A DNA stretch of 64,000 bases from positions 320,001 to 384,000 of the forward strand of contig CAXXVZ010000003.1 in NCBI GenBank assembly GCA_963678065.2, in the 5' to 3' direction. The notes beneath the pieces were generated by a model. That model saw only the letters and a list, made by a program, of their open reading frames with translations. It had not been told where the DNA came from and made no database searches. A program made the position numbers and the translations under genes. This DNA comes from Treponemataceae bacterium. Its GTDB lineage: Bacteria; Spirochaetota; Spirochaetia; Treponematales; Rectinemataceae. Below, piece after piece: positions 2,964-58,300 of the stretch. Each line of letters opens with the position of its first letter. Position 1 is the first letter of the stretch.

Positions 2964-3138
2964 TTCCTCTCTCCTGTCGTGAATATTCATACGGAATCTA
3001 TACGAAAAGAACGAAAAAGAATAGCCCGCTGCGGCGGGCCGGGATACAGGATCGGCCGAGCGCGTGAACGCCGTCGTTGCGTCCTGACGGAGCCTTTGCC
3101 GAGGTTGACCTCAATATTCATGGAAAGGTAGACTGACC

Positions 3139-33640: not shown

Positions 33641-34657
33641 ATGGGCGGAAAACTCAGAATCGGGATCGTCGGCCTCGGCCGCCTCGGGAAACGACATGCC
33701 TCCAATCTGGCCTGGAAGGTCAAGGGAGCCGAACTCGCCGCCGCCTGCTCGGTCGTTCCTGAGGAACTGGAGTGGGCCAAATCGGAACTCGGCATCGCCG
33801 AGGTCTACGACAGCTATGAAGAAATGTTTGCAAAAGCGCATATCGATGCCGTCTATCTCGTCAGCTCATCCTCAGTTCATGCGGCGCAGATCGTCCAGGG
33901 CCTGGAGAGAGGCCTCCATGTCTTCAGCGAAAAACCCATGGGCGTGAACCTCGCCGAGTGTCTCGCCGTGGAAAAGGCTGTCGCCGCTCATCCCGGTCAG
34001 ACGTTTTTCATCGGATTCGTCCGCCGCTTTGATCCGAGCTACGTATACGCGAAAAAAATGATCGACGAAGGAGCCATCGGGAAGTCCTTCCTCGTGCGCT
34101 CCCAGACAGCCGATCTCGACGAGTACGCTCCCTTCCAGGTCAAGTTCGTTCCGACTTCGGGCGGCATCTTCCTCGACATGAACGTACACGACATCGATCT
34201 CGCCCGCTGGTTCCTGGGCGACGAGGTGGCAAGCGTCTACGCGGTAGGCGGCAGCTATGTCCACCCGGAGTTCGCCGACGTGAACGACGCCGACAACACC
34301 GAGGCGATCATGAAATTCCGGAACGGAACAGTGGCCGTCCTCGCGGTCAGCAGGACGGCTTTCCACGGCCACGACACCCACACCGAGATCAAGGGCAGCA
34401 AAGGCATCATCAAGATCGGCCTGACGCCCGCAAAAAACCGCGTCGAACTCTTCGATTCGTGCGGCGCCCGTTCCGAGTGCGTGAAGGATTTCTACGAGCG
34501 CTTCGCCGAGGGCTTTCTGGCGGAAGCCCAGGAGTTCGTCGACTGCGCCCTCTCGGGACGGAAACCCAGCGTCTGCGCGGCGGACGGGACCCGTGCGACA
34601 GAAGTCGGCTTCGCCCTCACCGAGTCCTTCCGGACAGGCTCGGTCATAACACTGTGA
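33641..34657 (+). CDS. Gfo/Idh/MocA oxidoreductase, inositol dehydrogenase-like
   Basis: GIVGLGRLG, HVFSEKP, GFVRRFDP, SGGIFLDMNVHDID. Confidence 0.88.
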   Translation: MGGKLRIGIVGLGRLGKRHASNLAWKVKGAELAAACSVVPEELEWAKSELGIAEVYDSYEEMFAKAHIDAVYLVSSSSVHAAQIVQGLERGLHVFSEKPMGVNLAECLAVEKAVAAHPGQTFFIGFVRRFDPSYVYAKKMIDEGAIGKSFLVRSQTADLDEYAPFQVKFVPTSGGIFLDMNVHDIDLARWFLGDEVASVYAVGGSYVHPEFADVNDADNTEAIMKFRNGTVAVLAVSRTAFHGHDTHTEIKGSKGIIKIGLTPAKNRVELFDSCGARSECVKDFYERFAEGFLAEAQEFVDCALSGRKPSVCAADGTRATEVGFALTESFRTGSVITL

Positions 34658-34701
34658 ATCGCGGCTCTGAGCCGTGATAGAGTTATTTCATGGAGGCTTC
34701 T

Positions 34702-35625
34702 ATGAACATGAAGAGAGGAATCCTGGTGCTCATGGCCCTTCTGGCCCTGACAGGAATGGCCTTCGGCCAGCAGATGAAGGTAGGCGTCACCCTCTACGAC
34801 CGCGACCAGTTCATCAGCTATCTCGAGCAGGCGATCCTTGATGCCGCCAAGGTGACTCCCGGCGTCACCGTCGATTCACAGGATGCCAAGCAGGACGTAA
34901 ACCAGCAGATCGCCCAGGTCGACGTCTTCGCGACCAAGAAGTACAACGCCATCATCGTCAACCTGATCAACACCGACACCGTCGAGACCATCATCAGCCG
35001 CGCCTCCGGCATTCCCGTCATCTTCGTCAACCGCCGCCCCCGCGACGCGGTGATCGACGGCGTGAAGACCGCCTATGTCGGATCCCAGGAATTCGATGCC
35101 GGCCGCATGCAGGGCGAATACCTCGCCAAATTCTTCAAGGGAAAGACCGAGATCAAGTACGTCCTCTTCATGGGACAGCTCGGCCTCGAGAACACCAACG
35201 AGAGAACCCGCGGCGTCAAGGAGACCCTGACCAAGGCTGGATTCAAGCTCACCAAGGTCTACGAGGACACCGCAGAGTGGGACCGCTTCAAGGCTATGAA
35301 TCAGATGCAGCAGCTCCTCGGCACCATGAAGCCCTTCGACGTCGTCATCTGCAACAACGACGAAATGGCCCTCGGCGTCATCGAAGCCATGAAATCCGCC
35401 AAGATGGACCTCAAGAAGATCCCGGTCGTCGGAATCGACGCCACGCCCGCCGCCAAAGAAGCCGTCAAGAAAGGCGAGATGTCCATGACCGTGTTCCAGA
35501 ACGCGAAAGCCCAGGGCGCCGTCGCCCTCGAGTTCGCCCTCAAGGCAGCCAAAGGCCAGAAGATCGAGAAGTTCGGCTGGGTTCCCTTCGAGCCCGTCAC
35601 CATCGAAAACGTAGCCAAGTACTGA
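34702..35625 (+). CDS. Sugar (probably inositol) ABC substrate-binding protein, RbsB/MglB class
   Basis: Signal peptide; DAKQDVNQQIAQVD, IPVIFVNRRP, NNDEMALG, VVGIDAT, TVFQNAKAQG. Start ATG 34702 after GGAGG. Confidence 0.9.
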   Translation: MNMKRGILVLMALLALTGMAFGQQMKVGVTLYDRDQFISYLEQAILDAAKVTPGVTVDSQDAKQDVNQQIAQVDVFATKKYNAIIVNLINTDTVETIISRASGIPVIFVNRRPRDAVIDGVKTAYVGSQEFDAGRMQGEYLAKFFKGKTEIKYVLFMGQLGLENTNERTRGVKETLTKAGFKLTKVYEDTAEWDRFKAMNQMQQLLGTMKPFDVVICNNDEMALGVIEAMKSAKMDLKKIPVVGIDATPAAKEAVKKGEMSMTVFQNAKAQGAVALEFALKAAKGQKIEKFGWVPFEPVTIENVAKY

Positions 35626-35638
35626 TCATCCATCTGCA

Positions 35639-35678
35639 TACAGGGAGCCGTCATTCCGAAACGTGACGGCTCCCTGTA
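35639..35678 (+). other. Intercistronic stem-loop after the SBP gene
   Basis: 15-bp perfect arms TACAGGGAGCCGTCA/TGACGGCTCCCTGTA; no U tract. Confidence 0.6.
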
Positions 35679-35738
35679 CGGATACTGCCGCGCGGCCCTG
35701 CGGCTGCGCGGACCTGCGTCATGCGGGTCGGGGGAGAC

Positions 35739-37250
35739 ATGGACGAATACATTCTCAGCATGAAAAACATTGTCCGGACATTCCCGGGCGTAAAGGCGCT
35801 GAACGGTGTCGATTTCAACCTGAAACGCGGCACGGTCCACGCTCTCATGGGAGAAAACGGGGCCGGCAAATCGACGCTCATGAAGTGCCTCGTGGGCATA
35901 AACCCGCCCGATTCCGGTGAAATCATCCTCAAGGGGAAAGCCGTCAGCATCCCGACGACTATAACCGCTCTCAGGCTCGGAATCGCGATGATCTACCAGG
36001 AACTGAATCCCATCGCCGAGCGGAGCGTGATGGAGAACATATGGCTCGGCCGCGAGCCCATGCATGGTCTGGGGCACATCTTCGTGGACCACAAAGCCAT
36101 GTACAAAAAGACGAAAGAACTCCTCGCCAATCTCGAACTCGACCTCGATCCCAGAGTCAAGCTCAAGGAACTCTCCGTCGCCAAAATGCAGATGGTCGAA
36201 ATAGCCAAGGCTGTCTCCTACGACGCGGATATACTCATCATGGACGAACCGACATCGGCGCTCACACCCAACGAGGTAGACCACCTGTTCAGCCTCATCG
36301 CGAGGGTCAAAGCCAAGGGCGTCGCAGTCGTCTACATCACGCATAAAATGGACGAAATATTCCGCATCTCCGACGAGGTCACGGTTCTCAGGGACGGCTC
36401 CCATGTCCTGACCAAGCCGGTGGCGGAAATGAACATAGATTCCCTCATCGCCGCCATGGTCGGGCGGAACCTGGACGAGATGTTCCCCAAGGTCGAGTGT
36501 CCGATAGGCGGAGTGAAGTTCGAAGTGAAAGGTCTCTCATGCCCCGGCGTCCTCGAGAATGTGTCTTTTACGCTCCGGAAAGGAGAGATACTCGGCGTGG
36601 CCGGTCTCGTGGGTGCGGGGAGGACAGAGCTCATGGAGGCGCTCTTCGGCCTGCGCCAGAAGAGTTCGGGAGAAATCTTCATCGACGGGAAACCTGTGAA
36701 GATCGATAACCCCTCCGATGCCATACGGGCGAAGATCGGCTTCCTGACCGAAGACCGCAGACAGACGGGAATAATCCCCGTCCTCTCGGTGCGGGTGAAC
36801 ACCATTCTCGCGAACCTGGGTTGTTATATACAAGGCGGACTTTTCCTCAACAACCGCAAGATCGAAAGGGATGCGGTCGAGTACAAAGACAAACTCAGGA
36901 TAAAGACGCCCAACCTCGACGCTCTCATCCAGAATCTTTCGGGCGGCAATCAGCAGAAAGTCCTCGTAGCCCGCTGGCTCCTCACCCAGCCCGACATCCT
37001 CATCCTGGATGAGCCGACCCGGGGCATCGACGTGGGAGCGAAGGCGGAAATACACACGATCATCACCAAGCTCGCCGCTGAGGGTAAATCGATCATAATG
37101 GTCAGTTCGGAGCTGCCGGAAGTGCTCGGCATGAGCGACCGGATAGTGGTCGTCTGTCAGGGCAGAATCACCGGGATAGTGGACCGTAAAGACGCCAATC
37201 AGGAAATCATCATGCGCTACGCCACCAAACAAGCGCAGAACGTCGCATAA
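35739..37250 (+). CDS. Sugar ABC ATP-binding protein (MglA/RbsA type, duplicated NBD)
   Basis: GENGAGKST, MDEPTSAL, LSGGNQQK, LDEPTRGIDVGAK. Confidence 0.93.
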   Translation: MDEYILSMKNIVRTFPGVKALNGVDFNLKRGTVHALMGENGAGKSTLMKCLVGINPPDSGEIILKGKAVSIPTTITALRLGIAMIYQELNPIAERSVMENIWLGREPMHGLGHIFVDHKAMYKKTKELLANLELDLDPRVKLKELSVAKMQMVEIAKAVSYDADILIMDEPTSALTPNEVDHLFSLIARVKAKGVAVVYITHKMDEIFRISDEVTVLRDGSHVLTKPVAEMNIDSLIAAMVGRNLDEMFPKVECPIGGVKFEVKGLSCPGVLENVSFTLRKGEILGVAGLVGAGRTELMEALFGLRQKSSGEIFIDGKPVKIDNPSDAIRAKIGFLTEDRRQTGIIPVLSVRVNTILANLGCYIQGGLFLNNRKIERDAVEYKDKLRIKTPNLDALIQNLSGGNQQKVLVARWLLTQPDILILDEPTRGIDVGAKAEIHTIITKLAAEGKSIIMVSSELPEVLGMSDRIVVVCQGRITGIVDRKDANQEIIMRYATKQAQNVA

Positions 37251-37263
37251 AGGGGAAGGAACC

Positions 37264-38247
37264 ATGGCCAATTCAGGATCGTTAACAAAATTCGTCAACA
37301 AATTCGCCATCTTCATCGTTTTGGGATTGATGGTCATCGCCCTTACCTTCCTCTCTCCTTACTTCCTGACCCCGGGTAACCTTATAAACGTCCTCATCTC
37401 CGAGTCGGGGCGGGGGATGCTCGCGATCGGAGTCGCCTTCACGATCATCTCGAAGGGCATCGACATCTCCGTCGGCTCCATCGTTTCGCTGACCTCCGTC
37501 ATCGCCGCCAGCCTCATCCAGGAGCCGACTTACGCCAACAGGATATTCCCGAACCTGCCCCTGCTTCCCGTCTTCGTGCCGGTTCTGGCCGGCATCGCCG
37601 CCGGCGTACTCGTTGGCGCAGTGAACGGCTGGTTCATCGCCTACACCGCCATTCCGCCCTTCATCGCGACCCTGGGCAGCATGATAATCGCCCGCGGCCT
37701 CGCCCTCATCATCACGAACGCCTACCCGGTCCCGATGCTCAGGCAGGAGTTCAAGAACCTCGGTCAGGGCAACATCGGCCCGCTTCCGATCATAGTCCTC
37801 GTCTTCATACTGGTCACGATTCTCGCCTGGGTCCTCCTCAACAAGACCCGTTTCGGCAAAAACCTCTACGCCATCGGCGGCAATATCCACGCCGCCCGGA
37901 CTTCGGGAATCAAGGTCGAGAAGAACATCGTGGCCATCTATGCCTTCTCGGGATTCTGCGCCGCCATCGCCGGCGTCCTCATCACGGCCCGCGCCGCATC
38001 GGGCATCGCCACCCTCGGCAACAGCTACGAGCTCGACGCCATTGCCGCCGCCACAATCGGCGGAACGAGCCACACGGGAGGCATCGGCTCGGTCCCGGGA
38101 ATTGTCGCCGGCATCCTCATCCTCGGAATACTCAACAATGGACTCCTCCTGCTCGGGATATCTCCCTATCTCCAGCAGGTCATCAAGGGACTCATCATCA
38201 TCTTTGCGGTAGTCTTCGACATGCGCAAGAACGCCAAGAAGAAATAA
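37264..38247 (+). CDS. Sugar ABC permease (RbsC/MglC type)
   Basis: GIDISVGS, IPPFIATLG, TRFGKNLYAIGGN, YELDAIAA. Confidence 0.93.
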   Translation: MANSGSLTKFVNKFAIFIVLGLMVIALTFLSPYFLTPGNLINVLISESGRGMLAIGVAFTIISKGIDISVGSIVSLTSVIAASLIQEPTYANRIFPNLPLLPVFVPVLAGIAAGVLVGAVNGWFIAYTAIPPFIATLGSMIIARGLALIITNAYPVPMLRQEFKNLGQGNIGPLPIIVLVFILVTILAWVLLNKTRFGKNLYAIGGNIHAARTSGIKVEKNIVAIYAFSGFCAAIAGVLITARAASGIATLGNSYELDAIAAATIGGTSHTGGIGSVPGIVAGILILGILNNGLLLLGISPYLQQVIKGLIIIFAVVFDMRKNAKKK

Positions 38248-38378
38248 GCCAGATATACGACACTTCCGGCCTACGCCGGCCGAAAGTCCGGAACCGGGTC
38301 GGAATCCAAAAGTATGCGATCGCGCGACCGACCGATATGCACAGCGATCACTGCCTTCGTGGCAGAAAGGAAAATGCC

Positions 38379-39215
38379 TTGATAACGAAAAAACGCTTCG
38401 CGCTCAACAGGATCATCTCGCCGGGAATGTCCCTTGAGGAATTCTTCCGGTTCACATCCGGCCTGGGACTTTCGAAGGTCGAATTGCGGAACGATATCAA
38501 TGACGGCAGAATCCTCGACGGGATGGACCCTGCCGAAGCCGCCCGCATGGCCTCCGAGAAGAACATACGCGTCATATCCATCAATGCCCTCCAGAAATTC
38601 AACCTCGCGGCGGTCCGAGCAAAGGCGCGGGACGAACTCATGCAGATGCTCGACATCGCGGCGGCGATCACCTGCCCTGCCATCGTGCTCTGTCCGAACA
38701 ACGACCCTTCCGACGCGCGCTCTCCTGAACAGCGCTTCGCCGAAACCGTCGAGTCGCTCGCGGTATTCGGTCCATTCTTCGAAAAAGCGGGAATTCTTGG
38801 CTACATCGAGCCGCTGGGATTCGGCATTTCCTCCCTCGCGTCCCTGATTCCCGCCCGGGATGCCATAAAGGAATCGGGATTCGGCTGCTACAAAGTTCTC
38901 GTCGACACATTCCATCATTACATCGGACCCGATTCCTCCGATATTCTTGGAGCGGATTATCCAGTCGGACTGACAGGTCTCGTCCATATCTCCGGCGTCG
39001 AATCCGATATTCCCCCTTCGGACTACCGCGACGCCCACCGGATACTCGTCGGCCCTTCGGACAGAATGCACAGCAAGAAAACAATGGAAGCTCTCGACCG
39101 GCAAGGCTACGTTGGCGATTACTCATTCGAACCCTTCGCCGCCGAAATTCAAGCCCTTTCCGGCCAAGCTCTTGCCTCCGCGATCAGGGATAGCCTCGAA
39201 TACCTGACCAGCTGA
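38379..39215 (+). CDS. TIM-barrel sugar isomerase, IolI-like (inosose isomerase)
   Basis: RFALNRIISP, VELRND, SINAL, YIEPLGF, VDTFHH, VHISG and SFEPF metal-binding pattern. Probable TTG start at 38379 after GAAAGG. Confidence 0.75.
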   Translation: MITKKRFALNRIISPGMSLEEFFRFTSGLGLSKVELRNDINDGRILDGMDPAEAARMASEKNIRVISINALQKFNLAAVRAKARDELMQMLDIAAAITCPAIVLCPNNDPSDARSPEQRFAETVESLAVFGPFFEKAGILGYIEPLGFGISSLASLIPARDAIKESGFGCYKVLVDTFHHYIGPDSSDILGADYPVGLTGLVHISGVESDIPPSDYRDAHRILVGPSDRMHSKKTMEALDRQGYVGDYSFEPFAAEIQALSGQALASAIRDSLEYLTS

Positions 39216-40186: not shown

Positions 40187-40479
40187 GGCAGACTCCCCGT
40201 TTGTTGCTGTGGAAGGCTCGAATAACTCCCGTGCACCTCATTCTAGTCAGCGCCGACAGGGAAGCAATTGATTTTCATATCGAATTGGTATGGTTTCATT
40301 ATGTCTTTGATGCGGCCCTCCCGGCCGGTCACAGGGGCCTGATCCATTTGCCAGAAAGTCCTCATGGTTTGGAAGAATCGCTCTGTCTCCTGCCTCACGC
40401 GGCCACTATCCTGAACCTGCTTCTACCACAGGGAGTCCGTTTGGGGCGCCCTATTCGTCGCACGAACAGGAGGAAGAAG

Positions 40480-41526: not shown

Positions 41527-41645
41527 AGTTCGCTCAAGGCGCGTAGAGAGCTCCCTTGTGAGTTCGTACGCTTGACCTGCGCAGCATCCGCCTGCCGGCT
41601 TCCGGGAGACGGATGCGCCTTGAATCTTCGACCTGGGAGTCTGCC

Positions 41646-42602: not shown

Positions 42603-42612
42603 GAAAGATCAT

Positions 42613-44130: not shown

Positions 44131-44185
44131 TCCCGCAGGGCGTGTTCCGAGTACAGGGTCTATGTATCGGGAGGGTGTACAAGCA

Positions 44186-45190: not shown

Positions 45191-45220
45191 ATAAACCAAA
45201 GCAAAAGAAAGGAGACAGTC

Positions 45221-46312: not shown

Positions 46313-46425
46313 TCGGCTGCACGTGTGGCGGTGGAGTTTGGTGTTTTTCTGTGGCAAGCGGCAGAAGGCGGTTGCCGCAAAATGGATCACTATCGTCCTG
46401 AAGAGGAACTTAAGGAGGCAGGAAC

Positions 46426-48295: not shown

Positions 48296-49312
48296 ATGGC
48301 ACCTGTCAATGTGGGCATAATCGGAGCGGGACGGATCGGAAAGATCCATGCCTCCAACATCGTGTATTACATGCCCCAGGCGAAGGTAAAGACCATCGCG
48401 GATGTCAACCTGACTCCCGCAATCGAGGAATGGGCCGCCGGTCTCGGCATCCCCGTCGCGACGAAGGACCCCGAGTCGATTTTTTCTGATCCCGAGATTT
48501 CCGTCGTTCTCGTCTGCTCGTCCACCGACACGCACGCGGATTTCGTCATCAAGGCCGCCAAAGCGGGAAAGCACATTTTCTGCGAAAAACCAGTCGATCT
48601 GACAGTCGCCAAAGTCAAGGCAGCGCTCGCCGCTGTCGCCGCGGCCAAGGTGAAGCTCCAGGTCGGGTTCAATCGCCGGTTCGATCACAACTTCGCGAAG
48701 GTCCGCGAACTCGTGGCCTCGGGAAGCATCGGCGATCCGCACGTCATCAAGATCACCTCCCGCGATCCTGCGCCGCCGCCACCCGCCTATGTGGCTGTCT
48801 CCGGTGGTATCTTCCTCGACATGACCATCCATGATTTCGACATGGCCCGCTTCCAGGCCGGCAGCGATGTCGTCGAAGTCTACGCGGCGGGCGCCGTCCT
48901 CGTCGATCCCGAAATCGGGAAAGCGGGGGACATCGACACCGCCATCATTACACTGAAATTCGCGAACGGCGCGATCGGTGTCATCGACAATTCCCGCAAG
49001 GCGGCCTACGGTTACGATCAGCGCGTCGAAGTTTTCGGCTCGAAAGGCGCGGCGGCCGCCGAGAACGACGCCGCCAGCACCGTGAAGCTCTCCACCGAAT
49101 CGGGTGTAACGGGCGAGAAGCCCCTCTACTTCTTCCTTGAGCGCTACAAGGAAGCCTTCATCTCTGAAATGCGCGCCTTCCTCGACGCTGTCGCCGGCGA
49201 CAAGCCGGTTTCTGTCACCGGCGAGGACGGCCTGCAGGATCTTCTCGTCGCCCTCGCGGCAAAGAAATCCGTCGCGGAGAAGCGGCCTGTCAGGCTCTCC
49301 GAAATCGCGTAA
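48296..49312 (+). CDS. iolG: myo-inositol 2-dehydrogenase
   Basis: GIIGAGRIG, HIFCEKP, GFNRRFD, ITSRDP, SGGIFLDMTIHDFDMARF, YGYDQRVEVFG. Start ATG 48296 after AAGGAGG. Confidence 0.93.
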   Translation: MAPVNVGIIGAGRIGKIHASNIVYYMPQAKVKTIADVNLTPAIEEWAAGLGIPVATKDPESIFSDPEISVVLVCSSTDTHADFVIKAAKAGKHIFCEKPVDLTVAKVKAALAAVAAAKVKLQVGFNRRFDHNFAKVRELVASGSIGDPHVIKITSRDPAPPPPAYVAVSGGIFLDMTIHDFDMARFQAGSDVVEVYAAGAVLVDPEIGKAGDIDTAIITLKFANGAIGVIDNSRKAAYGYDQRVEVFGSKGAAAAENDAASTVKLSTESGVTGEKPLYFFLERYKEAFISEMRAFLDAVAGDKPVSVTGEDGLQDLLVALAAKKSVAEKRPVRLSEIA

Positions 49313-49370
49313 TCGTCCCAAAGGGGAGGCCGGAGACGGTCTCCCCTCCTCGCATCTCAAGGAGTACTCC

Positions 49371-50186
49371 ATGCAAACCAAGCATCCGGCCGCCTTCGCG
49401 GCCGGCTATGAAGCGATAGTCGACCGCGCCGGACCGGATGCGGACATGCTCATGGATTTCGGTATTGTCACCCTCGGCTCAGGGGCGAGCTGGGAATCCG
49501 GTCCTGGACTCGAGAGAGCCGTTCTCTTCATGGGCGGAGAGGCGCGTCTCGAATGGGGAGAACCTGGAGCCCCGGCTGCTGCGACCGTATCCCGGCGAAG
49601 TCTTTTCGATGAAAATCCGGCCGTTCTCCATCTCGACAGAAGAATGACCTGCAGAGTGACGGCGGGCGGGCGGGGCGCTGAACTCTCCGTGACGATGACC
49701 GAGAACGCCAAGACCTTTCCTGCGAAGCTCTACGCCCCGGAAGAGTGCCGGAGCGAAGAGCGCGGGAAAGGCACGATGCGCGAAACGAGCACCCGGATTG
49801 TGAGGACTGTCTTCGACGATTCCAACGCCCCCGACTCGAACCTCGTCATAGGCGAAGTGGTCGGGGCACCGGGGAAATGGTCGAGCTATCCACCCCATCA
49901 TCATCCGCAGCCCGAGATTTACCACTACCGCTTCCTGCCTGGCCAAGGTTTCGGCCTCACCGCTATCGGGGACCGCGCCTACATACTCTCAGACAAGGAT
50001 ACCATCCTCATCCGCGACACCGAGGATCATCCGCAGGTGACCGCCCCCGGCTATGCGATGTGGTACCTCTGGGTGATCCGGCATCTCGACGCTGATAGGT
50101 ACATCACCCCCCGCTTTACCGAACAGCATGCATGGGTGGCCGGACCCGATGCCGACATCTGGCTTCCTCCTTCGGAACGGACCTGA
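49371..50186 (+). CDS. iolB: 5-deoxy-glucuronate isomerase
   Basis: RRSLFDE, LVIGEV...GKWSSYPPHHHPQPEIYHYRF, HPQVTAPGYAMWYLW. Start ATG 49371 after AAGGAG. Confidence 0.92.
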   Translation: MQTKHPAAFAAGYEAIVDRAGPDADMLMDFGIVTLGSGASWESGPGLERAVLFMGGEARLEWGEPGAPAAATVSRRSLFDENPAVLHLDRRMTCRVTAGGRGAELSVTMTENAKTFPAKLYAPEECRSEERGKGTMRETSTRIVRTVFDDSNAPDSNLVIGEVVGAPGKWSSYPPHHHPQPEIYHYRFLPGQGFGLTAIGDRAYILSDKDTILIRDTEDHPQVTAPGYAMWYLWVIRHLDADRYITPRFTEQHAWVAGPDADIWLPPSERT

Positions 50187-50221
50187 GGTCCATAGGGCGC
50201 CACAGACAACAGGAGATGATT

Positions 50222-52087
50222 ATGGAAACCATAAAGCTGACAGTCGGCCAGGCTCTCGTCCGTTTCCTCGACAACCAGTACATCGAGCTGGACGGCGAAG
50301 AAAGCAAATTCGTCGAAGGTGTCTTCGGCATATTTGGTCACGGAATCGTCGTCGGACTGGGCGAGGCGCTCGCGGCGCCGGGGCATGGTCTTACGTTTTA
50401 TCAGGGAAAGAACGAACAGGGTATGACGCATGCCGCCATCGGTTTTGCCAAACAGAATGACTGCAGGAGGATCATGGCCGTGACGACATCCATCGGCCCG
50501 GGAGCCCTCAACATGGTCACTGCGGCAGGCACAGCCACCGTCAACCACGTTCCTGTCCTCCTTCTGCCGGCGGACGCCTACGCCTGCAGGCAGCCCGATC
50601 CTGTTCTTCAGCAGGTCGAGACCCCGGATGACTACACAAACACCGCCAACGATGCCTTCAGGGCGGTATCCCGGTACTGGGACAGAGTGAACAGGCCGGA
50701 ACAGCTCATGACGGCCATGATCAATGCCATGCGCGTATTGATCGATCCGGTGCAGGCCGGGGCCGTGACCATCGCGCTACCCCAGGATGTACAGGGCGAG
50801 GCCTACGACTATCCCGTCGAGTTCTTCGCAAAGCGAGTCCACCACATCGAGAGGCGCATCCCTTCCGAGGCTGCGGTGGAGCGCGCGGTCGCCATGATCC
50901 AGGCGGCGTCAAAGCCTCTCGTCATCTGCGGCGGAGGCGTGCGCTACTCCCGTGCGGGAGCCGAACTCGCGGCGTTCTGCAGGAAATTCCACATTCCCTT
51001 CGGCGAGACACAGGCAGGCAAGGGCGTCATCCTCTGGGACAATCCCTACAATCTTTCAGGAATCGGACTTACCGGAAGTCAGGCCGCGAACCGCATCGCC
51101 AAGGCCTCCGACCTCGTCATCGCGGTCGGAACACGGCTTGGAGACTTCACCACCTGCTCCAAGTGGCTTTTTCAGAATCCGGACTGCAGATTCCTCGGCA
51201 TCAACGTCGCTTCCTTCGATGCATACAAGATGAACGCCGAACCGATGATCGCCGACGCGAAGCTCGCGCTCGCGGCGATCACCCGATCTCTCGCGAGGAA
51301 AGGATATCATTCCGCGTGGGGTGACGCGATCGAGCGCGAGCGCGCACTTTGGAAGGCGGAAGTGGACAGGTTGTACTCCGAAGATGTGCCCGAGGGGCTT
51401 TCCCAGGCTCGCGCGCTCGGGGAGCTGAACGACAGGCTCCTTCCGCGCGACGCGGTCTGCATCTCCGGCTCCGGATCGATCCCAAGCGACATGCAGCGCG
51501 TTTGGCGCGTCCGTGTTCCGGGGACCTACCATATGGAGTACGGATTCTCCTGCATGGGCTACGAAGTGGCGGCCGGTCTCGGCGTCAAGATAGCGGAGCC
51601 GGACCGGGAAGTCGTCGTCATCGTTGGGGACGGCGCCTACACCATGCTGCACACCGAACTTCTGACCGCCGTGCAGGAGGGCAGGAAGATAATCGTCGTC
51701 GTGCTTGACAATTCCGGATTCCACTGCATCGACAATCTCCAGAACAGCCAGGGCATCGAACATTTCGCCAACGAGTGGAGGAGCCGCGACCCGGCTACCG
51801 GCAGGCTCACCGGGCCTACGGTCAAAGTCGATTTCGCCAAGAACGGCGAGAGCTGGGGCGCTGTCGGTCTTCGTGCGCGCACGGTCGACGAGTTCAGAAA
51901 GGCGGTCAGACGGGCGCTCAAGGAAAAAGGACCTGTCGTCATCGACGCCAAGGTCGCTCCCAAGTCCATGACCAAAGGGTACGAATCCTTCTGGCGCGTG
52001 GGCACCGCGGAAGTCTCGCACAATCCGGCCGTCGTGGCGGCAGCAGCCGTCGTCAAGGCCGAAGTTGCCAAATCCAGAAAATTCTAG
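50222..52087 (+). CDS. iolD: 3D-(3,5/4)-trihydroxycyclohexane-1,2-dione acylhydrolase
   Basis: LTVGQALVRFL.NQY, GIFGHG, RQPDPVLQQ, YHMEYGFSCMGYE and the ThDP motif GDGAY...DN. Confidence 0.95.
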   Translation: METIKLTVGQALVRFLDNQYIELDGEESKFVEGVFGIFGHGIVVGLGEALAAPGHGLTFYQGKNEQGMTHAAIGFAKQNDCRRIMAVTTSIGPGALNMVTAAGTATVNHVPVLLLPADAYACRQPDPVLQQVETPDDYTNTANDAFRAVSRYWDRVNRPEQLMTAMINAMRVLIDPVQAGAVTIALPQDVQGEAYDYPVEFFAKRVHHIERRIPSEAAVERAVAMIQAASKPLVICGGGVRYSRAGAELAAFCRKFHIPFGETQAGKGVILWDNPYNLSGIGLTGSQAANRIAKASDLVIAVGTRLGDFTTCSKWLFQNPDCRFLGINVASFDAYKMNAEPMIADAKLALAAITRSLARKGYHSAWGDAIERERALWKAEVDRLYSEDVPEGLSQARALGELNDRLLPRDAVCISGSGSIPSDMQRVWRVRVPGTYHMEYGFSCMGYEVAAGLGVKIAEPDREVVVIVGDGAYTMLHTELLTAVQEGRKIIVVVLDNSGFHCIDNLQNSQGIEHFANEWRSRDPATGRLTGPTVKVDFAKNGESWGAVGLRARTVDEFRKAVRRALKEKGPVVIDAKVAPKSMTKGYESFWRVGTAEVSHNPAVVAAAAVVKAEVAKSRKF

Positions 52088-52099
52088 AGGAGATACATC

Positions 52100-52987
52100 A
52101 TGAGCGGAAAAATCAGACTTGCCATAGCGCCCATCGGCTGGACGAACGATGACCTTCCGGAGCTCGGCGGCCAGATTCCCTTCGAACAGTGCGTCAGCGA
52201 GATGGCTCTCGCCGGATTCGAGGGCAGTGAGGTCGGCAACAAGTACCCCAAGGATCCTGCCGTACTCAACAAGGCTCTCGCGCTTCGCGGGCTCACCATC
52301 TGCAACGCCTGGTTCTCGAGCTTCCTCACCACGAAGCCCCTGAAGGAAGTCGAAAAGGAATTTATCGCCCACCGCGACTTTCTCTACGCGGTCGGCGCGC
52401 GGGTCATCGGCGCCGCCGAGCAAGGTAATTCCATTCAAGGCAAGGATATTTCAGTTTTTGGAGCGAAACCTGTTTTCTCCGCCGACGAGTGGAAAAAGCT
52501 TGGCGATGGGCTGAACCACCTCGGTGAGCTCGCGAACGAGAAGGGCATGAAGCTCACCTACCACCATCACATGGGCACGGGCGTCCAGACCGCCTCCGAA
52601 ATCGATAAACTCATGGAGCTGACGGAGCCAGGGCTCTGCGACCTCCTCTACGACACGGGGCATCTCGTGTTCTCGGGCGAGGACCACCTGGCCATACTCG
52701 AAAAATATGCGTCCCGCATCAAGCACGTTCATCTCAAGGACCTGCGCCCCGCGGTCGTGGCCAAGGTCAAAGCCGAGGGGTGGAGCTTTCTCAAAGCCGT
52801 CAAATCCGGAGCCTTCACTGTGCCAGGCGATGGCTGCATCGATTTTGTCCCTGTCTTCGGCGCACTCAAGAAATCGGGCTACGAGGGCTGGTGGGTCGTC
52901 GAGGCCGAACAGGACCCCGCCCTCGCCAATCCTTTCGAGTATGCGGTGAAGGCCCGAACCTATATCCGGGAGAAAGCAGGCATCTGA
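52100..52987 (+). CDS. iolE: myo-inosose-2 dehydratase
   Basis: [46 protein letters not shown]. Confidence 0.95.
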
Positions 52988-53147
52988 TAGGATGCGAAAA
53001 CTCGATGCGTTTTGCCGGCCCGTTAAAAACGGGCGTGGATGCGGAATGCGTGGGATTCATGGAGACATGGCCGCGAGAGGGCGGCCATATCGGGCGGCGG
53101 GTCTCTCCGGAAGGCTAGACTCGATCGAGCAATGACAGGAGGAAATC

Positions 53148-54176
53148 ATGGCGAAGGTGCGAGTGGGAGTGGCGGGATACGGAGTGATAGGGCAGAGGCT
53201 GGCGGACGGGGTGGCGCTGCAGGGGGACATGGAGCTGGTGGGTGTGGCGGACGTTGCGCCGACGCTGTCGGTGCGAGCGCTGCGCGAGCGGGGGATGCCA
53301 TACAAATTCTACACAGCACTTCCTGAGAAGCGAGCGGAGCTGGATAAGGCGGGCATTCCGATAACGGGCACGCTCGAGGAGCTCGTGCAGAGCGTGGACG
53401 TGATGCTGGACGCGACGAGCGCGGGGGTTGGGGCGAAGAACAAGGAACTGTACGCGAAATACGGGAAGAAGGGGATATTCCAGGGAGGGGAGAAGAACTC
53501 GGTGGCGGATGTGTTCTTCCACGGGTACGCGAACTACGAGAAGGGGTTGGGGGCGCAGTTTCTGAAGTTGACGAGCTGCAACACGACGGGGTTGATCCGG
53601 GCGGTGGACTGTCTTGACCGGGAAGTCGGGGTCGAGAAAGTGGCGATCACGATCATCCGCCGCGTGGCCGATCCGGGGGACTACCACCGGGGTCTGACGA
53701 ACGCGCTGCAACTTGAGCATGCGCCGAGCCATCAGGCGCTCGACCTGATGACGATCATGCCGCAGGTGGACGCGACGGGGATCCTTGTGCACACGCCGGT
53801 GACGCACGGGCACATCATCACGGTATTGGCGACGACGAAGAAGACGGTGAGCCCGGAGAGCACGCGCGAGATGTTGGCGGAGCATCCGCGGATCAGGATG
53901 GTGAGTCTGGCGGAAGGGTTTTTGGGGAACGCGAGCTTTTTCCGGTACGCGCGGGATCTGGGGAATCCGCGAGGGGACATGTACGAGATCGGGTGCTGGG
54001 AAGACTCGATCGTGATGAGCGGGAAGGATGTGATGTTTGCGATCAACATACCGCAGGAGTCGGTGGTGATACCGGAGAATATGGACGGGGTGCGGGCGTG
54101 CATGGGGATGCAGTCCGACAGGCTGGAAGCGACGGGGATGACGAACAAGTATCTGGGCATCGGGAAGTGGCGCTGA
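53148..54176 (+). CDS. Class II (archaeal-type) glyceraldehyde-3-phosphate dehydrogenase homologue
   Basis: GYGVIGQRLAD.V..Q.DM.LVGV, IFQGGEK, catalytic SCNTTGL, IRRVADP, ES.VIPEN.D.VRA: all class II GAPDH hallmarks. Confidence 0.88.
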   Translation: MAKVRVGVAGYGVIGQRLADGVALQGDMELVGVADVAPTLSVRALRERGMPYKFYTALPEKRAELDKAGIPITGTLEELVQSVDVMLDATSAGVGAKNKELYAKYGKKGIFQGGEKNSVADVFFHGYANYEKGLGAQFLKLTSCNTTGLIRAVDCLDREVGVEKVAITIIRRVADPGDYHRGLTNALQLEHAPSHQALDLMTIMPQVDATGILVHTPVTHGHIITVLATTKKTVSPESTREMLAEHPRIRMVSLAEGFLGNASFFRYARDLGNPRGDMYEIGCWEDSIVMSGKDVMFAINIPQESVVIPENMDGVRACMGMQSDRLEATGMTNKYLGIGKWR

Positions 54177-54201
54177 GGGCGCGGGGGACAAGGAGAAGCC
54201 G

Positions 54202-55497
54202 ATGAGCGGAGCCCGACTGAAGATGAAGCCCGTGACCGAGTGTGCGCTTGCAGGGAAGACGGTGTTGTTTCGGCCTGACATCAACTCGCCGATCGATCCG
54301 GAGACGAAGCGGATCGTGAACAGGAACCGGCTGGAGAAGACGGTGCCGACCTTGAATCTGCTTTTGGAGGGTAAAGCGAAGGTGGCGCTGATAGCGCATC
54401 AGGGCGACACGCTGGATTATCAGAATCTGATACCGATGGAGGAGCACGCGGCGATCCTGACGAAGCTGACGGGGAAGAAGGTGGGCTACATCGACGATGT
54501 GTGCGGACCTGCGGCCTGTCAGGCGGTGAGCACGCTTGCGCCCGGTGAGGCGGTGATACTGGGGAACCTGCGCTACCTGAGTGAGGAGATCTCGAGCTTC
54601 GAGAGTGCGGTGAAGCTGAAGCCGAGCCAGATGCTGGACACGTGGCTGGTGAGGAAGCTTGCGCCACTTGCGGATCTGTACGTGAACGACGCGTTTGCGG
54701 CGGCACACCGGAACGCGCCCTCGATGGTGGCGTTCCAGGAGCTTGTGCCGACAGCGGCGGGGATACAGCTGATGGACGAGTATACGGCGCTGAAGTCGGT
54801 GATGGACAGTCCGAAGCGTCCCTGCGTGTACGTGCTGGGAGGAGCGAAGATATCGGACGCCTTCGACATGATGAGGAAGGTGCTGACAGACGGGAGTGCG
54901 GACAGAATCCTGACGGCGGGCGTGACAGGGATGGTGATGCACATAGCGCGGGGAGTGGACCTCGGGCCTGCGGTGATGAAGTTTCTGGTCGACAAGGGAT
55001 TGGAGGGGTTCATTCCGGAAGCGAAGGCTCTTCTTGCCGAGTTTGGGGACAGGTATGTGTTGCCGGTGGACATGGCATACGAGTGCGCGGAACCCGGATC
55101 GATCGGCGTGCGCGCGGAAGCCCCGATCGCGGAGCTGCCGAGGGACAGGATCTTTCCGGACATCGGGCACGCGACGATCGCGCTGTTCAAGGAGCACATT
55201 GCTCAGGCGGGCTCGGTGTTCGTGAACGGGCCGGCTGGGGTGTACGAGGATGCGCGCTGGGAGGCGGGGACGAAGGAAGTGTGGCGCGCGATCGCGGAGG
55301 CTCCCGGGTACACGGTGGTGGGAGGAGGGGACACGATCAGCGCGGCGACCCGCTTTACGGACCTGTCGAAATATGGGTATGTATGTACGGGTGGCGGCGC
55401 GATGGTGCGCTTTCTCGCGGGCAAGAAGCTCCCTCTCATCGAGGCGATGGAGAAGGCCTTCGAGCGCAACCTGAACGCAGCTATCAACCGACACTAG
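54202..55497 (+). CDS. Phosphoglycerate kinase homologue, archaeal-like
   Basis: FRPDINSP, AHQG, NLRY, NDAFAAAHRN.PS, LGGAKISD, NGPAGVYE, GGGDT, CTGGGA. Confidence 0.88.
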   Translation: MSGARLKMKPVTECALAGKTVLFRPDINSPIDPETKRIVNRNRLEKTVPTLNLLLEGKAKVALIAHQGDTLDYQNLIPMEEHAAILTKLTGKKVGYIDDVCGPAACQAVSTLAPGEAVILGNLRYLSEEISSFESAVKLKPSQMLDTWLVRKLAPLADLYVNDAFAAAHRNAPSMVAFQELVPTAAGIQLMDEYTALKSVMDSPKRPCVYVLGGAKISDAFDMMRKVLTDGSADRILTAGVTGMVMHIARGVDLGPAVMKFLVDKGLEGFIPEAKALLAEFGDRYVLPVDMAYECAEPGSIGVRAEAPIAELPRDRIFPDIGHATIALFKEHIAQAGSVFVNGPAGVYEDARWEAGTKEVWRAIAEAPGYTVVGGGDTISAATRFTDLSKYGYVCTGGGAMVRFLAGKKLPLIEAMEKAFERNLNAAINRH

Positions 55498-55510
55498 AAG
55501 GAAGGAACGA

Positions 55511-56965
55511 ATGAAACTGGATCTCTCTCTCAAGGATCTTTCGAAGGCCTTTCCCGTGGATCTGACGCCCGACCAGAAAGCAAAGGCGCAAACCCTCTTC
55601 CTGAAGAAGCTCTCGATTTCGGCGCATGAGTTTTTCGGCGGCAAGATGCAGACCGTACCCATGTGTGGCCTGTGGGGCTTCAACTGGTTCAACGTCTGGT
55701 ACACGCCTGGCGTCTCTGCGGTCTCGACGACGATCCGCGACAACAACGACGCGTCGTTCGCGCTGTCGAACCGCGGAAACCTCGTCGCGGTCGTGTCCGA
55801 TTCCACTCGCGTTCTCGGTGACGGCGACTGCACGCCTCCCGGAGGACTCGGCGTCATGGAGGGCAAAGCCTTCCTCATGAAGTACCTCGGAGGCGTCGAC
55901 GCTGTGGCGCTGTGCGTGGATTCCCGCGGACCTGACGGTAAACACGATCCGGACAAGATCATCGAGTTCGTGAAGATGCTGCAGCCGAGCTTCGGAGCCG
56001 TAAACCTCGAGGACATCAGCCAGCCGAATTGCTTCAAGGTCCTGGACGAACTCCGCGAGAGCTGCGACATTCCGGTCTGGCACGACGACGCCCAGGGGAC
56101 GGCCTGCGTGACTCTCGCGGGACTCCTCAACGCCCTGAAGCTCGCGGGAAAGAAGCTCGGAGACGCGAAGATCGTGCTGCTCGGCGCCGGAGCGTCGAAC
56201 ACGACGATTGCCCGGCTGATCCTCGCGGACGGCGGCGACCCCGCGAAGATGATCATGTTTGACTCGAAAGGCGGTCTGCACCTGGGCAGGGCCGATATCG
56301 AGAAGGATAAGAGGAACTACCGCAAGTGGGAGCTCTGTCAGAGAACGAACCCCGGCAGGGTCCAGACGGAGGCCGAGGCTATCGCGGGGGCGGATGTCCT
56401 CATCGCGCTCTCGACACCCGGACCGGACACGGTGAAGCGCGAGTGGGTACACTCGATGGCGCCGAAGTCCATCGTCTTTGCCTGCGCGAACCCTGTGCCG
56501 GAGATCTGGCCGCATGCGGCGAAGGAAGAGGGCGCCTACATCGTGGCGACCGGCCGTGGCGACTTTCCGAATCAGGTCAACAACTCCGTCTGCTTCCCCG
56601 GCCTCCTCAAAGGGGCCCTGCTGGTGCGCGCCCGCAAAGTTACAGACGGAATGGCGATCCGGTGTTCGCACTCGATCGCGGACTTTGCGGAGAAGCGCGG
56701 GATCAGCGAAAACGACATCACGGCGCGGATGGACGAGTCAGAGGTCTTCGCGATCCAGGCTGCCGACGTCGCCATGAAGGCGATAGAGGAAGGAGTCGCG
56801 CGCGTGATCATGACCTGGGATGAAGTTTACAACAGGGCGAAGGCGGACATCGCGGCCTCCCGGAAACTGACAGAGGACCTCATGAGGCTGGGACACATTA
56901 AGGAGCCGCCTGAGTCGATGCTGCAGGAAGCCCTCGATTGGGCCATAGCGCAGGTCAGGAAATAA
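55511..56965 (+). CDS. NAD(P)-dependent malic enzyme (short type, no PTA domain)
   Basis: YTPGV, VMEGKA, NLEDISQPNCF, HDDAQGT, GAGAS, ANPVPEI, TGRGDFPNQVNN. Confidence 0.92.
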   Translation: MKLDLSLKDLSKAFPVDLTPDQKAKAQTLFLKKLSISAHEFFGGKMQTVPMCGLWGFNWFNVWYTPGVSAVSTTIRDNNDASFALSNRGNLVAVVSDSTRVLGDGDCTPPGGLGVMEGKAFLMKYLGGVDAVALCVDSRGPDGKHDPDKIIEFVKMLQPSFGAVNLEDISQPNCFKVLDELRESCDIPVWHDDAQGTACVTLAGLLNALKLAGKKLGDAKIVLLGAGASNTTIARLILADGGDPAKMIMFDSKGGLHLGRADIEKDKRNYRKWELCQRTNPGRVQTEAEAIAGADVLIALSTPGPDTVKREWVHSMAPKSIVFACANPVPEIWPHAAKEEGAYIVATGRGDFPNQVNNSVCFPGLLKGALLVRARKVTDGMAIRCSHSIADFAEKRGISENDITARMDESEVFAIQAADVAMKAIEEGVARVIMTWDEVYNRAKADIAASRKLTEDLMRLGHIKEPPESMLQEALDWAIAQVRK

Positions 56966-56972
56966 ACTCGCC

Positions 56973-57005
56973 AGGGTGTTGAAAACGAGCAGCTTTCAAC
57001 ACCCT
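56973..57005 (+). other. Intercistronic stem-loop between the malic enzyme and larA-like genes
   Basis: 12-bp arms AGGGTGTTGAAA/TTTCAACACCCT without a U tract. Confidence 0.55.
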
Positions 57006-57019
57006 CTACGGAGGATCGC

Positions 57020-58300
57020 ATGAAGCTGGATATTCCGTATTATGGAAAACACATACCACTCGTGCTGCCGGAGGGTGTACCGGTCGATATCCTTGAGCCG
57101 AACGACCTGGCGGGAGAAGACGGTATCCCCGGCACAGATGCTGCGGCAGCGGCGATCCGTGTGAACACGGCAGTGAATTCGCCCTTGGATGCGCTGCCGC
57201 TTCACGAGTTCCTGGCGGGAGGGGAGAAGATCCTCGTCATCGTGAACGACGCGACACGGCCGACCCCGACTCGGATCGTCCTCGACGCAATCGCGGATGA
57301 GCTCGCGAAAGCGCAGGCTCGCTTCATTGTCGCGACAGGCGCTCACCGGGCCCCGACCGAAGAAGAGTACCGCCAGATATTCGGAGCTCACTACGACGCA
57401 TTCCGTTCCCGTTGTACCGCTCACGTCGCGCGCGACGAATCGAGCCTCGTCGACCTCGGCGCGACGCGCAACGGAACGCCGATCCTCCTCAACAGGGCTG
57501 TCTTCGAGGCCGACCGCGTGGTCGCGATCGGGTCGGTGGAGCCGCACTATTTCGCGGGCTACACCGGCGGACGGAAGGCCTTCCTCCCCGGCGTTGCGGG
57601 CTTCAGGACCATCGAGGCGAACCACAAACTGGCTCTGTCCGACATGGCGCGGGCCTGCGAGCTTGCGCACAACCCCGTGAGCCAGGACATGGACGATGCC
57701 CTCAATCTCATAGCGGTGCCGGTGTTTTCCATAATGACAGTGCTCGACAAAGACCAGAACCTCGCATGGTGCTCGGCCGGGGATATCCGCTCCTCCTTCG
57801 ACGAGGCGGTGAGCAAGGCCGACGCTATTTTCACCGTGCCGATACTGAGGAAAGCGGACCTTGTGGTCTCTGTGGCGCGTTTTCCGATGGACATCGATCT
57901 CTACCAGTCGCAGAAGGCGATCGACAATGGTTCGCTGGCCCTGAAGGACGGAGGGACGCTGATCATGGTTTCGTCCTGCCGCGATGGGGTGGGGGACAGG
58001 GCTTTTCTCGACCTGATGGGCAGAGCGAAGGGCCCTGAGGACGCTCTTGCGCGGATCGGAGAGGGTTACCGGCTTGGCTATCACAAGGCGGCGAAGCTTG
58101 CCCTCATAGCGCAGCGCGCCTCCATACGGGCCGTCTGCGAGCTTGATCCTGCGCTCCTGTCGAAAGCGTTCATAGCGTCCTGCCCGGACCTGCAGAGGGC
58201 GGTGGACGATATTCTCGCCGCAGCGGGTCCCGGCGCCACCGTTGCCTTTCTCCCCGACGGAAGCGTCACTGTGCCGAGGTTCGTGACGCGGATCCCGTAA
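57020..58300 (+). CDS. LarA-family nickel-pincer 2-hydroxy-acid racemase/epimerase
   Basis: VNDATRPTP, ATGAHR, EPHYFAGYTGGRK, NH, DLYQSQKA motifs. Confidence 0.88.
   Translation: MKLDIPYYGKHIPLVLPEGVPVDILEPNDLAGEDGIPGTDAAAAAIRVNTAVNSPLDALPLHEFLAGGEKILVIVNDATRPTPTRIVLDAIADELAKAQARFIVATGAHRAPTEEEYRQIFGAHYDAFRSRCTAHVARDESSLVDLGATRNGTPILLNRAVFEADRVVAIGSVEPHYFAGYTGGRKAFLPGVAGFRTIEANHKLALSDMARACELAHNPVSQDMDDALNLIAVPVFSIMTVLDKDQNLAWCSAGDIRSSFDEAVSKADAIFTVPILRKADLVVSVARFPMDIDLYQSQKAIDNGSLALKDGGTLIMVSSCRDGVGDRAFLDLMGRAKGPEDALARIGEGYRLGYHKAAKLALIAQRASIRAVCELDPALLSKAFIASCPDLQRAVDDILAAAGPGATVAFLPDGSVTVPRFVTRIP

Follow-up and report, generated by a model that had tools for sequence, protein, structure and literature searches.

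The 64,000-nucleotide stretch analysed here (the window), taken from contig CAXXVZ010000003.1 of an anaerobic Treponemataceae bacterium in the phylum Spirochaetota, carries a block of eight open reading frames (ORFs), all on the + strand, in the order iolG-iolB-iolD-iolE-gap-pgk-malic enzyme-larA. The upstream four encode inositol enzymes: inositol 2-dehydrogenase (IolG, 48296..49312, +; TIGR04380 score 483, cut-off 355), an IolB-type 5-deoxyglucuronate isomerase (49371..50186, +; 178 bits to Pfam KduI/IolB, with a TIGR04378 score of 89, below 205), trihydroxycyclohexane-1,2-dione (THcHDO) hydrolase (IolD, 50222..52087, +; TIGR04377 896, cut-off 715; start chosen by the spacing of the ribosome-binding site) and inosose dehydratase (IolE, 52100..52987, +; TIGR04379 419, cut-off 290). 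They are followed by a class II homologue of glyceraldehyde-3-phosphate dehydrogenase (GAPDH-II, 53148..54176, +; NF003251 402, cut-off 185, also passing TIGR01546), predicted to be a phosphorylating (R)-malic-semialdehyde dehydrogenase, and by an archaeal-type phosphoglycerate kinase (PGK) homologue (54202..55497, +; 332 bits to Pfam PGK, top PDB match 2cun at 246 bits), predicted to be a D-malyl-1-phosphate:ADP kinase. A malic enzyme (55511..56965, +; Pfam malic and Malic_M) and a LarA-family racemase with malate-racemase-type residues (57020..58300, +; top NCBIfam match NF052593 at 371, below the cut-off of 500) complete the block. The ORF map and the NCBIfam and Pfam matches confirm the eight-gene order given in an earlier reading of the sequence alone (the original prediction).

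Spacers in the downstream half measure 160 nt between iolE and gap (52988..53147), 25 nt between gap and pgk, 13 nt between pgk and the malic enzyme gene, and 54 nt before larA, where a stem-loop (56972..57004, +) lacks a U-tract. The 160-nt spacer contains hairpins, again lacking a U-tract, and no + strand terminator-like site, in a scan of low power (13 sites against 9.4±3.7 in shuffles); promoter and terminator scans of the window as a whole were at chance level. The original statement that this gap holds no U-tract terminator is thus borne out, though by a scan near chance. In four lake metatranscriptome runs from a single study, RNA contigs match segments of each half, and none of the 31 pieces inspected, out of 91, bridges the iolE-gap junction; one piece spans gap and pgk but diverges by 3-4% and continues into unrelated sequence. 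These pieces are no evidence for or against co-transcription across the junction. Base composition differs between the halves, with G at 80% of fourfold sites in gap (the highest among 1826 long ORFs, median 29%) and at 66-67% in pgk, compared with 23-29% in the iol genes, a contrast suggesting that gap and pgk have a history of their own or were replaced recently.

The enzymes IolG, IolE, IolD and IolB produce 2-deoxy-5-keto-D-gluconate (DKG), the 2-deoxy acid arising through IolD and IolB. DKG is (3R,4S)-3,4,6-trihydroxy-5-oxohexanoate, and its C3 and C4 have the D-threo geometry of xylulose 5-phosphate that transketolase needs; the four-carbon product therefore has the D-malate centre, as ketol transfer leaves (R)-3-hydroxy-4-oxobutanoate ((R)-malic semialdehyde), whose oxidation gives D-malate. 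The genes downstream of iolE probably encode the lower half of an inositol pathway that is independent of IolC and IolJ and proceeds via transketolase to D-malate. In this scheme unphosphorylated DKG would be cleaved to (R)-malic semialdehyde by a split transketolase whose genes lie on another contig, with glyceraldehyde 3-phosphate (G3P) as the presumed ketol acceptor and the resulting xylulose 5-phosphate recycled via the pentose pathway. The GAPDH-like and PGK-like enzymes would then convert the semialdehyde to D-malate with formation of NADH and ATP, and the LarA racemase and malic enzyme would take D-malate to pyruvate and CO2.

Gene neighbourhoods were compared for the 80 best of 558 GTDB relatives of the window GAPDH-II (73-87% identical), which span five phyla (Spirochaetota, Bacillota, Chloroflexota, Atribacterota and Planctomycetota); their neighbours were clustered and mapped. 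PGK adjoins GAPDH-II in 79 of the 80 loci. The original prediction proposed that iol genes, transketolase, larA and malic enzyme genes would co-occur with GAPDH-II, and they do: iol genes occur in 36/80 loci, with iolD dominant (32/80), transketolase in 33/80, LarA in 40/80, malic enzyme in 29/80 as two types about 40% identical, and some malate-handling gene in 53/80. Class II aldolase, methylmalonate-semialdehyde dehydrogenase (MMSDH) and transaldolase were found in 0/80 loci, and a PfkB-like kinase in 1/80. The window iolB belongs to a divergent subfamily common to GAPDH-II loci, with 39-65% identity to their iolB. The iolE-gap arrangement is not chance, because the two genes lie 9-30 nt apart in 12/80 loci, and in several clostridia the order ABC-(mae)-gap-pgk-tkN-tkC-iolB-iolD-iolE-iolG places the module within the iol operon. 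Cultured strains with such a compact operon include Clostridium magnum DSM 2767 (L042), C. pascui (L053) and Fonticella (L067).

The loci also bear on the predicted end point. A D-malate/tartrate dehydrogenase (TIGR02089, over cut-off) occurs in five loci, all of them lacking LarA and malic enzyme, so one D-malate-disposing enzyme appears to replace the racemase and malic enzyme together; in L046 it is placed between iolD and iolE. A sixth candidate neighbour, in L057, turned out to be LeuB; it and the host's own hit were excluded. This replacement is, on sequence comparison, the best pointer to D-malate as the product, and with the malate genes at 53 loci it upholds the D-malate end point originally proposed.

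Further neighbours vary among the loci. IolN/IolO homologues, of the Thermotoga-type inositol route, adjoin the module in L022, L076, L086, L089 and L100, where a tartrate-forming version is possible. In the non-iol loci L055 (7253-7930), L058, L062, L065 and L146 (12226-12891), a gene of the Asp/Glu-racemase family adjoins gap-pgk together with LarA, and two of these loci also hold malic enzyme. The module adjoins a 2-oxoacid/acetoin dehydrogenase-type E1/E2/E3 complex in L044, L074 and L098, which might offer the C2 unit another acceptor route. In small-genome Clostridia (L061, L081-L084, L092-L094, L097 and L099), gap-pgk stands alone amid housekeeping genes.

A transketolase dedicated to this module is indicated by phylogeny. 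In a tree of C-subunits made by a quick search, all 33 linked split transketolases and two host paralogues form one clade (SH-aLRT 99), within which a host copy at C4:83125-85151 groups as sister (98) with the copies of L027, L032 and L036, where transketolase follows larA. This copy, on another contig than the window, is the best candidate for the DKG-cleaving enzyme of the host, whose genome has 15 matches to the transketolase N-domain; it was recovered by the paralogue search that the original prediction had proposed. Of the two ketolases originally envisaged, transketolase is thus favoured, as a dedicated split clade in 33/80 loci, and no phosphoketolase was seen among the genes that recur around the 80 loci. 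Clade members, the C4 copy included, share invariant H461->D and D469->N changes and the motif NGGTHM, and keep basic residues at R358 and R520; the E. coli numbering, D469 included, was placed on the host full-length enzyme by motif. R358, H461 and R520 are among the residues of the E. coli enzyme named in PMC12016104. Of 14 iol-linked spirochaete genomes lacking transketolase in the retrieved locus, 12 encode a homologue at another site (57-72% identical), and the retrieved copies carry the signature motif. Of 16 comparison genomes, 13 with iolC and 3 with transaldolase, one has a transketolase match, which sits in a second iol cluster.

If the module replaces IolC, the two should exclude each other. 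Among 50 genomes holding GAPDH-II loci (36 iol-linked, 14 others), iolC exceeds its cut-off in one. To avoid circularity, genomes were then chosen by iolD alone. Of 284 Clostridiaceae scored for iolD (17 more were unscored), a set centred on one carrier, 48 are positive: 31 have iolC only, 11 GAPDH-II only, 2 both and 4 neither, in agreement with the anti-correlation originally anticipated. The two genomes with both carry three and two iolD copies, and in one the GAPDH-II is merely a fragment. Full GAPDH-II lies within 7 kb of an iolD in 12/12 of these Clostridiaceae, and all 15 iolC-negative genomes have either GAPDH-II near iolD (11) or an in-cluster transketolase (2) or transaldolase (2). 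Counted the other way, GAPDH-II occurs in 15/286 Clostridiaceae, in 13/48 with iolD compared with 2 of about 236 without (15 genomes unscored).

For the spirochaetes, a sample of 250 random genomes from the phylum gave only five other iolD-positive genomes; three of the five belong to a single genus and carry iolC, an aldolase and MMSDH but no GAPDH-II, one (G254) has transaldolase and MMSDH, and the complete genome G263 carries gap-pgk-larA-mae-tkN-tkC about 14 kb from iolD, with LarE present and iolC absent. Among 30 relatives of the host, GAPDH-II occurs in 7/8 with iolD and 2/22 without, and iolC in 0/30. Fisher p-values (4e-6, 2e-9) are not relied on, because the genomes compared are kin.

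The four Clostridiaceae with neither marker have other genes in their iol clusters, a split transketolase in G509 and G546 and transaldolase with MMSDH in G343 and G386. Split transketolase genes lie within iol clusters of GAPDH-II-negative genomes at L140 (6005-7887), L141 (4027-5838) and L181 (7203-9014), where the aldehyde must go to another enzyme. At L114 (4377-8057), L138 (7434-12763) and L139 (6675-11996), in the iolC-negative genomes G254, G343 and G386, a transaldolase-family gene and MMSDH adjoin iolB/iolD. Judged from their gene content, such loci would represent a third lower route, forming fructose 6-phosphate (F6P) and malonate semialdehyde and resembling the transaldolase route of sulfoglycolysis (sulfo-TAL).

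The rest of the host genome (G000; assembly 99.94% complete, 6.7% contaminated) yielded no iolC above cut-off in a profile search, the best score being 140 bits against a cut-off of 300; genuine IolCs score 362-421 and non-IolC PfkB kinases reach 224. DUF2090, the fusion partner in IolC-DUF2090, is likewise not found. The original prediction had noted that iolC, iolJ and iolA are missing from the window; for iolC the absence extends to the whole genome, and outside the window there are five class II aldolases and four IolA/MMSDH-type genes over cut-off, with IolJ-type aldolase and IolA found only away from iol genes. Two candidates for a classical route were rejected. The 140-bit match at C3:2295875, between two aldolases, scores no higher than PfkB kinases other than IolC can reach, and much lower than genuine IolCs. 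At C5, a second iolB (C5:967822; TIGR04378 242) has no iolD or iolE nearby, and the kinase clustered with it matches ribokinase (116) better than IolC (88); in this cluster (L102:9211-13715) the second iolB is divergent from a sulfoquinovose (SQ)-isomerase-like gene, a class II aldolase and a PfkB kinase. GAPDH-II and malic enzyme are single copies in the host, which holds a canonical GAPDH-I/PGK pair besides the window pair and six LarA homologues. Neither larB, larC nor larE was found in this genome, including with LarC and LarE of a related spirochaete as queries.

Active-site residues were compared by alignment. GAPDH-II keeps S139, C140, N141, R167, R168, H193 and H219 in the numbering of the Methanothermus fervidus enzyme, whose phosphate-binding and catalytic residues are listed in PMC12041015 (section 38); the window residues include Cys144, His222 and Arg171/172. 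H194 is replaced by Gln in 80/80 GAPDH-II proteins, whereas 76 outgroup proteins show 61 His and 6 Gln there, and Asp35 suggests NAD use. GAPDH-II forms a tight bacterial clade apart from the archaeal type (58-87% identity within, at most 42% to the rest), and its AlphaFold model is confident (pLDDT 89) and carries no substrate information. The site fits a phosphorylating dehydrogenase of an anionic aldehyde, and as read from these residues does not separate G3P from a carboxylate. PGK keeps D/N, R43, H66, R124, R170, NGP, GGGD and TxGG in 75/75 homologues, and the residue after HxG is D, S or G in all 75.

The window LarA is closest in the PDB to the malate racemase Mar2 (6d6z, 222.6, against 169 for lactate racemase). 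It keeps the catalytic, NPN (nickel-pincer nucleotide)-binding and malate-specificity residues in alignment to 6d6z, with QxQK and xHK motifs, the diagnostic residues of Mar2/LarAH6 being those listed in PMC7583248 (section 7); a loop reads YF where Mar2 has YK. Operon LarA homologues in L040, L116, L144 and L146 pass NF052593 at 580-602. LarE was not found in 13/18 genomes with YHK/WHK-subtype racemases, the host included, or in 2/6 with the GHK type, figures to which gaps in metagenome-assembled genomes may contribute. The proposal that LarA is a malate racemase is borne out by its Mar2-type residues and not by its family score or by cofactor genes.

Several of these observations weigh against a D-malate pathway. 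The genomes compared are kin, not independent, and the sets overlap in part; 44/80 loci have no iol gene and 12/80 no partner gene at all, many contigs being short. Both arginines that bind the phosphate of G3P are kept in GAPDH-II, and the GAPDH and PGK active-site changes, as far as the alignments go, are not diagnostic: a 'lost phosphate-binding arginine' in PGK was rejected as proof of a new substrate because the canonical PGK of the host also carries Asp there (HLGD). The window LarA falls below the LarAH6 cut-off, LarE was found in just 26/51 GAPDH-II genomes, and the racemase step is uncertain in the host because larB, larC and larE were not found; D-malate may here be exported or otherwise handled. 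The C4 transketolase may serve another substrate, in a variant of the SQ-degrading transketolase pathway (sulfo-TK) or a CoA-based acid-aldehyde route, because its cluster (L106:11150-18733; transketolase, acylating aldehyde dehydrogenase, SucCD-like ligase and DASS transporter) resembles the SqwD/SqwKL variant of sulfo-TK (PMC12890257). An acylating aldehyde dehydrogenase follows the clade transketolase in the host and in six others (G001, G002, G006, G007, G008 and G042). Finally, a host transaldolase at C5:1041163, about 9 kb from an MMSDH, is 48-51% identical to the iol-linked ones, about as close as these are to each other (51-52%).

This transaldolase raises the question of whether the module works elsewhere while in this host transaldolase (DKG + G3P to F6P + malonate semialdehyde) and an IolA-type MMSDH dominate, leaving the malate block secondary or decaying. 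The four MMSDHs, the failure to find larBCE and an operon lacking transketolase would fit such a view. We consider it quite unlikely, as the four window genes are intact with catalytic residues kept, the C5 transaldolase sits in a separate cluster devoid of iol genes, and the iol-gap junction is common to 7/8 iolD-positive relatives (at the genome level). The pair might instead oxidise another acid aldehyde released by this transketolase, for example sulfolactaldehyde or, if the substrate is a 5-keto-hexonate, tartaric semialdehyde, with promiscuous malate genes. Such a role is suggested by the IolN/IolO homologues in 5/80 loci, by TauE-family exporters adjoining some loci, by the inclusion of tartrate dehydrogenases in TIGR02089 and by the epimerisation of tartrate by malate racemases described in PMC11770544. 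It is nonetheless unlikely, given that malic enzyme was recruited as two divergent types and that iolD is the dominant partner. The 2-deoxy acid made by IolD and IolB, moreover, yields malate and not tartrate.

That GAPDH-II and PGK are ordinary G3P/3-phosphoglycerate enzymes, forming an additional glycolytic pair that is expressed along with the inositol genes, beside malate genes that meet separate redox or anaplerotic needs, agrees with the passing of both NF003251 and TIGR01546, with conservation of the counterparts of Arg167/168 and of every basic PGK residue except one, and with the 12/80 loci where the pair occurs alone. Yet canonical GAPDH-I is present in the host and in 5/5 stand-alone cases examined, the pair is absent from 31/33 iolC genomes, which form triose phosphate directly, and the D-malate enzymes would be left unexplained; this account appears highly unlikely. 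Taken over all loci, the comparative evidence argues strongly for a route that leads from DKG to D-malate through transketolase, GAPDH-II and PGK, and the interpretation put forward in the original prediction is supported at the level of sequence.

The predicted route shares with the canonical iol system (iolG/E/D/B/C/J/A, Bacillus subtilis type) the steps of IolG, IolE, IolD and IolB to DKG, and differs in lacking IolC and linked IolJ or IolA and in a predicted C2+C4 cut of DKG instead of a C3+C3 cut of DKG-6-phosphate. By this comparison the block is not a member of the canonical pathway and would work like sulfo-TK chemistry performed on a carboxylate. In sulfo-TK, which occurs in anaerobic Clostridia and spirochaetes, transketolase takes an anionic, non-phosphorylated ketose as a mimic of a ketose phosphate, with G3P as acceptor, and the aldehyde is oxidised with ATP formation in the SqwD/SqwKL version (PMC12890257). 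The route proposed here has a carboxylate for the sulfonate, a single cleavage and no isomerase, and a product that feeds central metabolism; its ATP would arise from an acyl phosphate through GAPDH/PGK folds, compared with a CoA thioester in sulfo-TK. SQ isomerase, SqwI, SqwD/KL and SqwF were not found in the window or among the recurring neighbours, and SqwD/KL-like genes occur only beside the C4 transketolase.

Individual steps have precedents. The 2-hydroxy analogue of DKG, 5-keto-D-gluconate, is cut by transketolase at the corresponding bond to give tartaric semialdehyde (PMC12016104, PMC13527115), and the engineered E. coli variant alters H461, which is changed in the clade too; that reaction is engineered or of low efficiency (Km 141 mM for one wild type), with non-phosphorylating oxidation and a biosynthetic aim. 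Carnitine catabolism leads from malic semialdehyde through D-malate to pyruvate and CO2 by a beta-decarboxylating D-malate dehydrogenase (PMC11353897), but there the aldehyde comes from an oxygenase and is oxidised by an ordinary aldehyde dehydrogenase, yielding no ATP. With archaeal class II GAPDH (1CF2, 2CZC) and archaeal PGK (2CUN) the window pair has in common the catalytic Cys and His, the anion-binding arginines and the ATP-site motifs, and the window GAPDH-II differs in belonging to a separate bacterial clade, in its His194->Gln change, in carrying Asp at the position that bears on NAD/NADP use, and in being accessory to GAPDH-I. With Mar2/LarAH6 (6D6Z; PMC7583248) the window LarA shares NPN-binding and catalytic residues, the Gln before the catalytic Lys and the HK motif; it is of a YHK spirochaete subtype, below the family cut-off, in a host where NPN-synthesis genes were not found. 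A malate kinase and a malate-4-semialdehyde dehydrogenase are called previously unreported in PMC5481828 and had to be engineered, whereas the chemistry predicted here is at C1. Literature on inositol catabolism, transketolase, malate racemase and malic semialdehyde gave no description of the route, most subscription papers and supplements lying outside the search.

The energetic benefit would be modest. By hand accounting, 3 DKG give 3 malic semialdehyde (+3 ATP) and 2 G3P (+4 ATP, less 2 for phosphofructokinase), hence five pyruvate per three DKG. Carried through to acetate, each inositol would yield 3.3 ATP, rising to 4.0 if a pyrophosphate (PPi)-dependent phosphofructokinase is free, compared with 3 for the IolC route. 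The window encodes such a PPi-dependent enzyme (1293..2990, -; TIGR02477 795, cut-off 588), which would affect how much ATP is gained when the C2 unit is recycled. The idea that an ATP-yielding step replaces the ATP-consuming IolC reaction thus retains a net gain, of only about +0.3 to +1 per inositol, smaller than originally implied because the C2 unit needs recycling.

Elsewhere in the window, a second IolG-like dehydrogenase (TIGR04380 328, below 355), a sugar ABC transporter and a TIM-barrel gene (33641..39215, +) likely serve inositol uptake and the entry of isomers, judging from their sequences; the order ABC-TIM barrel-iolG is repeated in the related loci L023 and L036. Directly upstream of iolG lies a separate AraC-linked sugar ABC operon (40201-47922) with DUF4432 and an aldehyde dehydrogenase, for which no recurrence was seen in the related loci; the aldehyde dehydrogenase (46426-47922) is not an MMSDH (223, cut-off 448.5).

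Inositol, including that derived from phytate, is a common substrate in guts, soils and sediments, and about a quarter of the sampled iolD-positive Clostridiaceae (11/48) have the module and no IolC; in such genomes the pathway is therefore now annotated as incomplete and the extra GAPDH and PGK as glycolytic. We lean towards a broader picture in which anaerobes have three parallel ways to dispose of DKG, through kinase/aldolase, transaldolase or transketolase as in sulfoglycolysis, GAPDH and PGK folds have been repurposed in the transketolase branch as a natural malic-semialdehyde dehydrogenase and D-malate kinase, many malate racemases find their physiological role, and the spirochaete racemase subtype lacking NPN genes may use scavenged NPN or another cofactor. 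If the pathway is real, it would bring two enzyme activities and, as its ATP-forming step, a new substrate-level phosphorylation, and would predict other products (malate or succinate) and more reducing equivalents. It would also give a partial answer to the in vivo role of malate racemases, left open in PMC7583248, and would provide natural transketolases for 5-keto sugar acids, enzymes now engineered for tartrate production.

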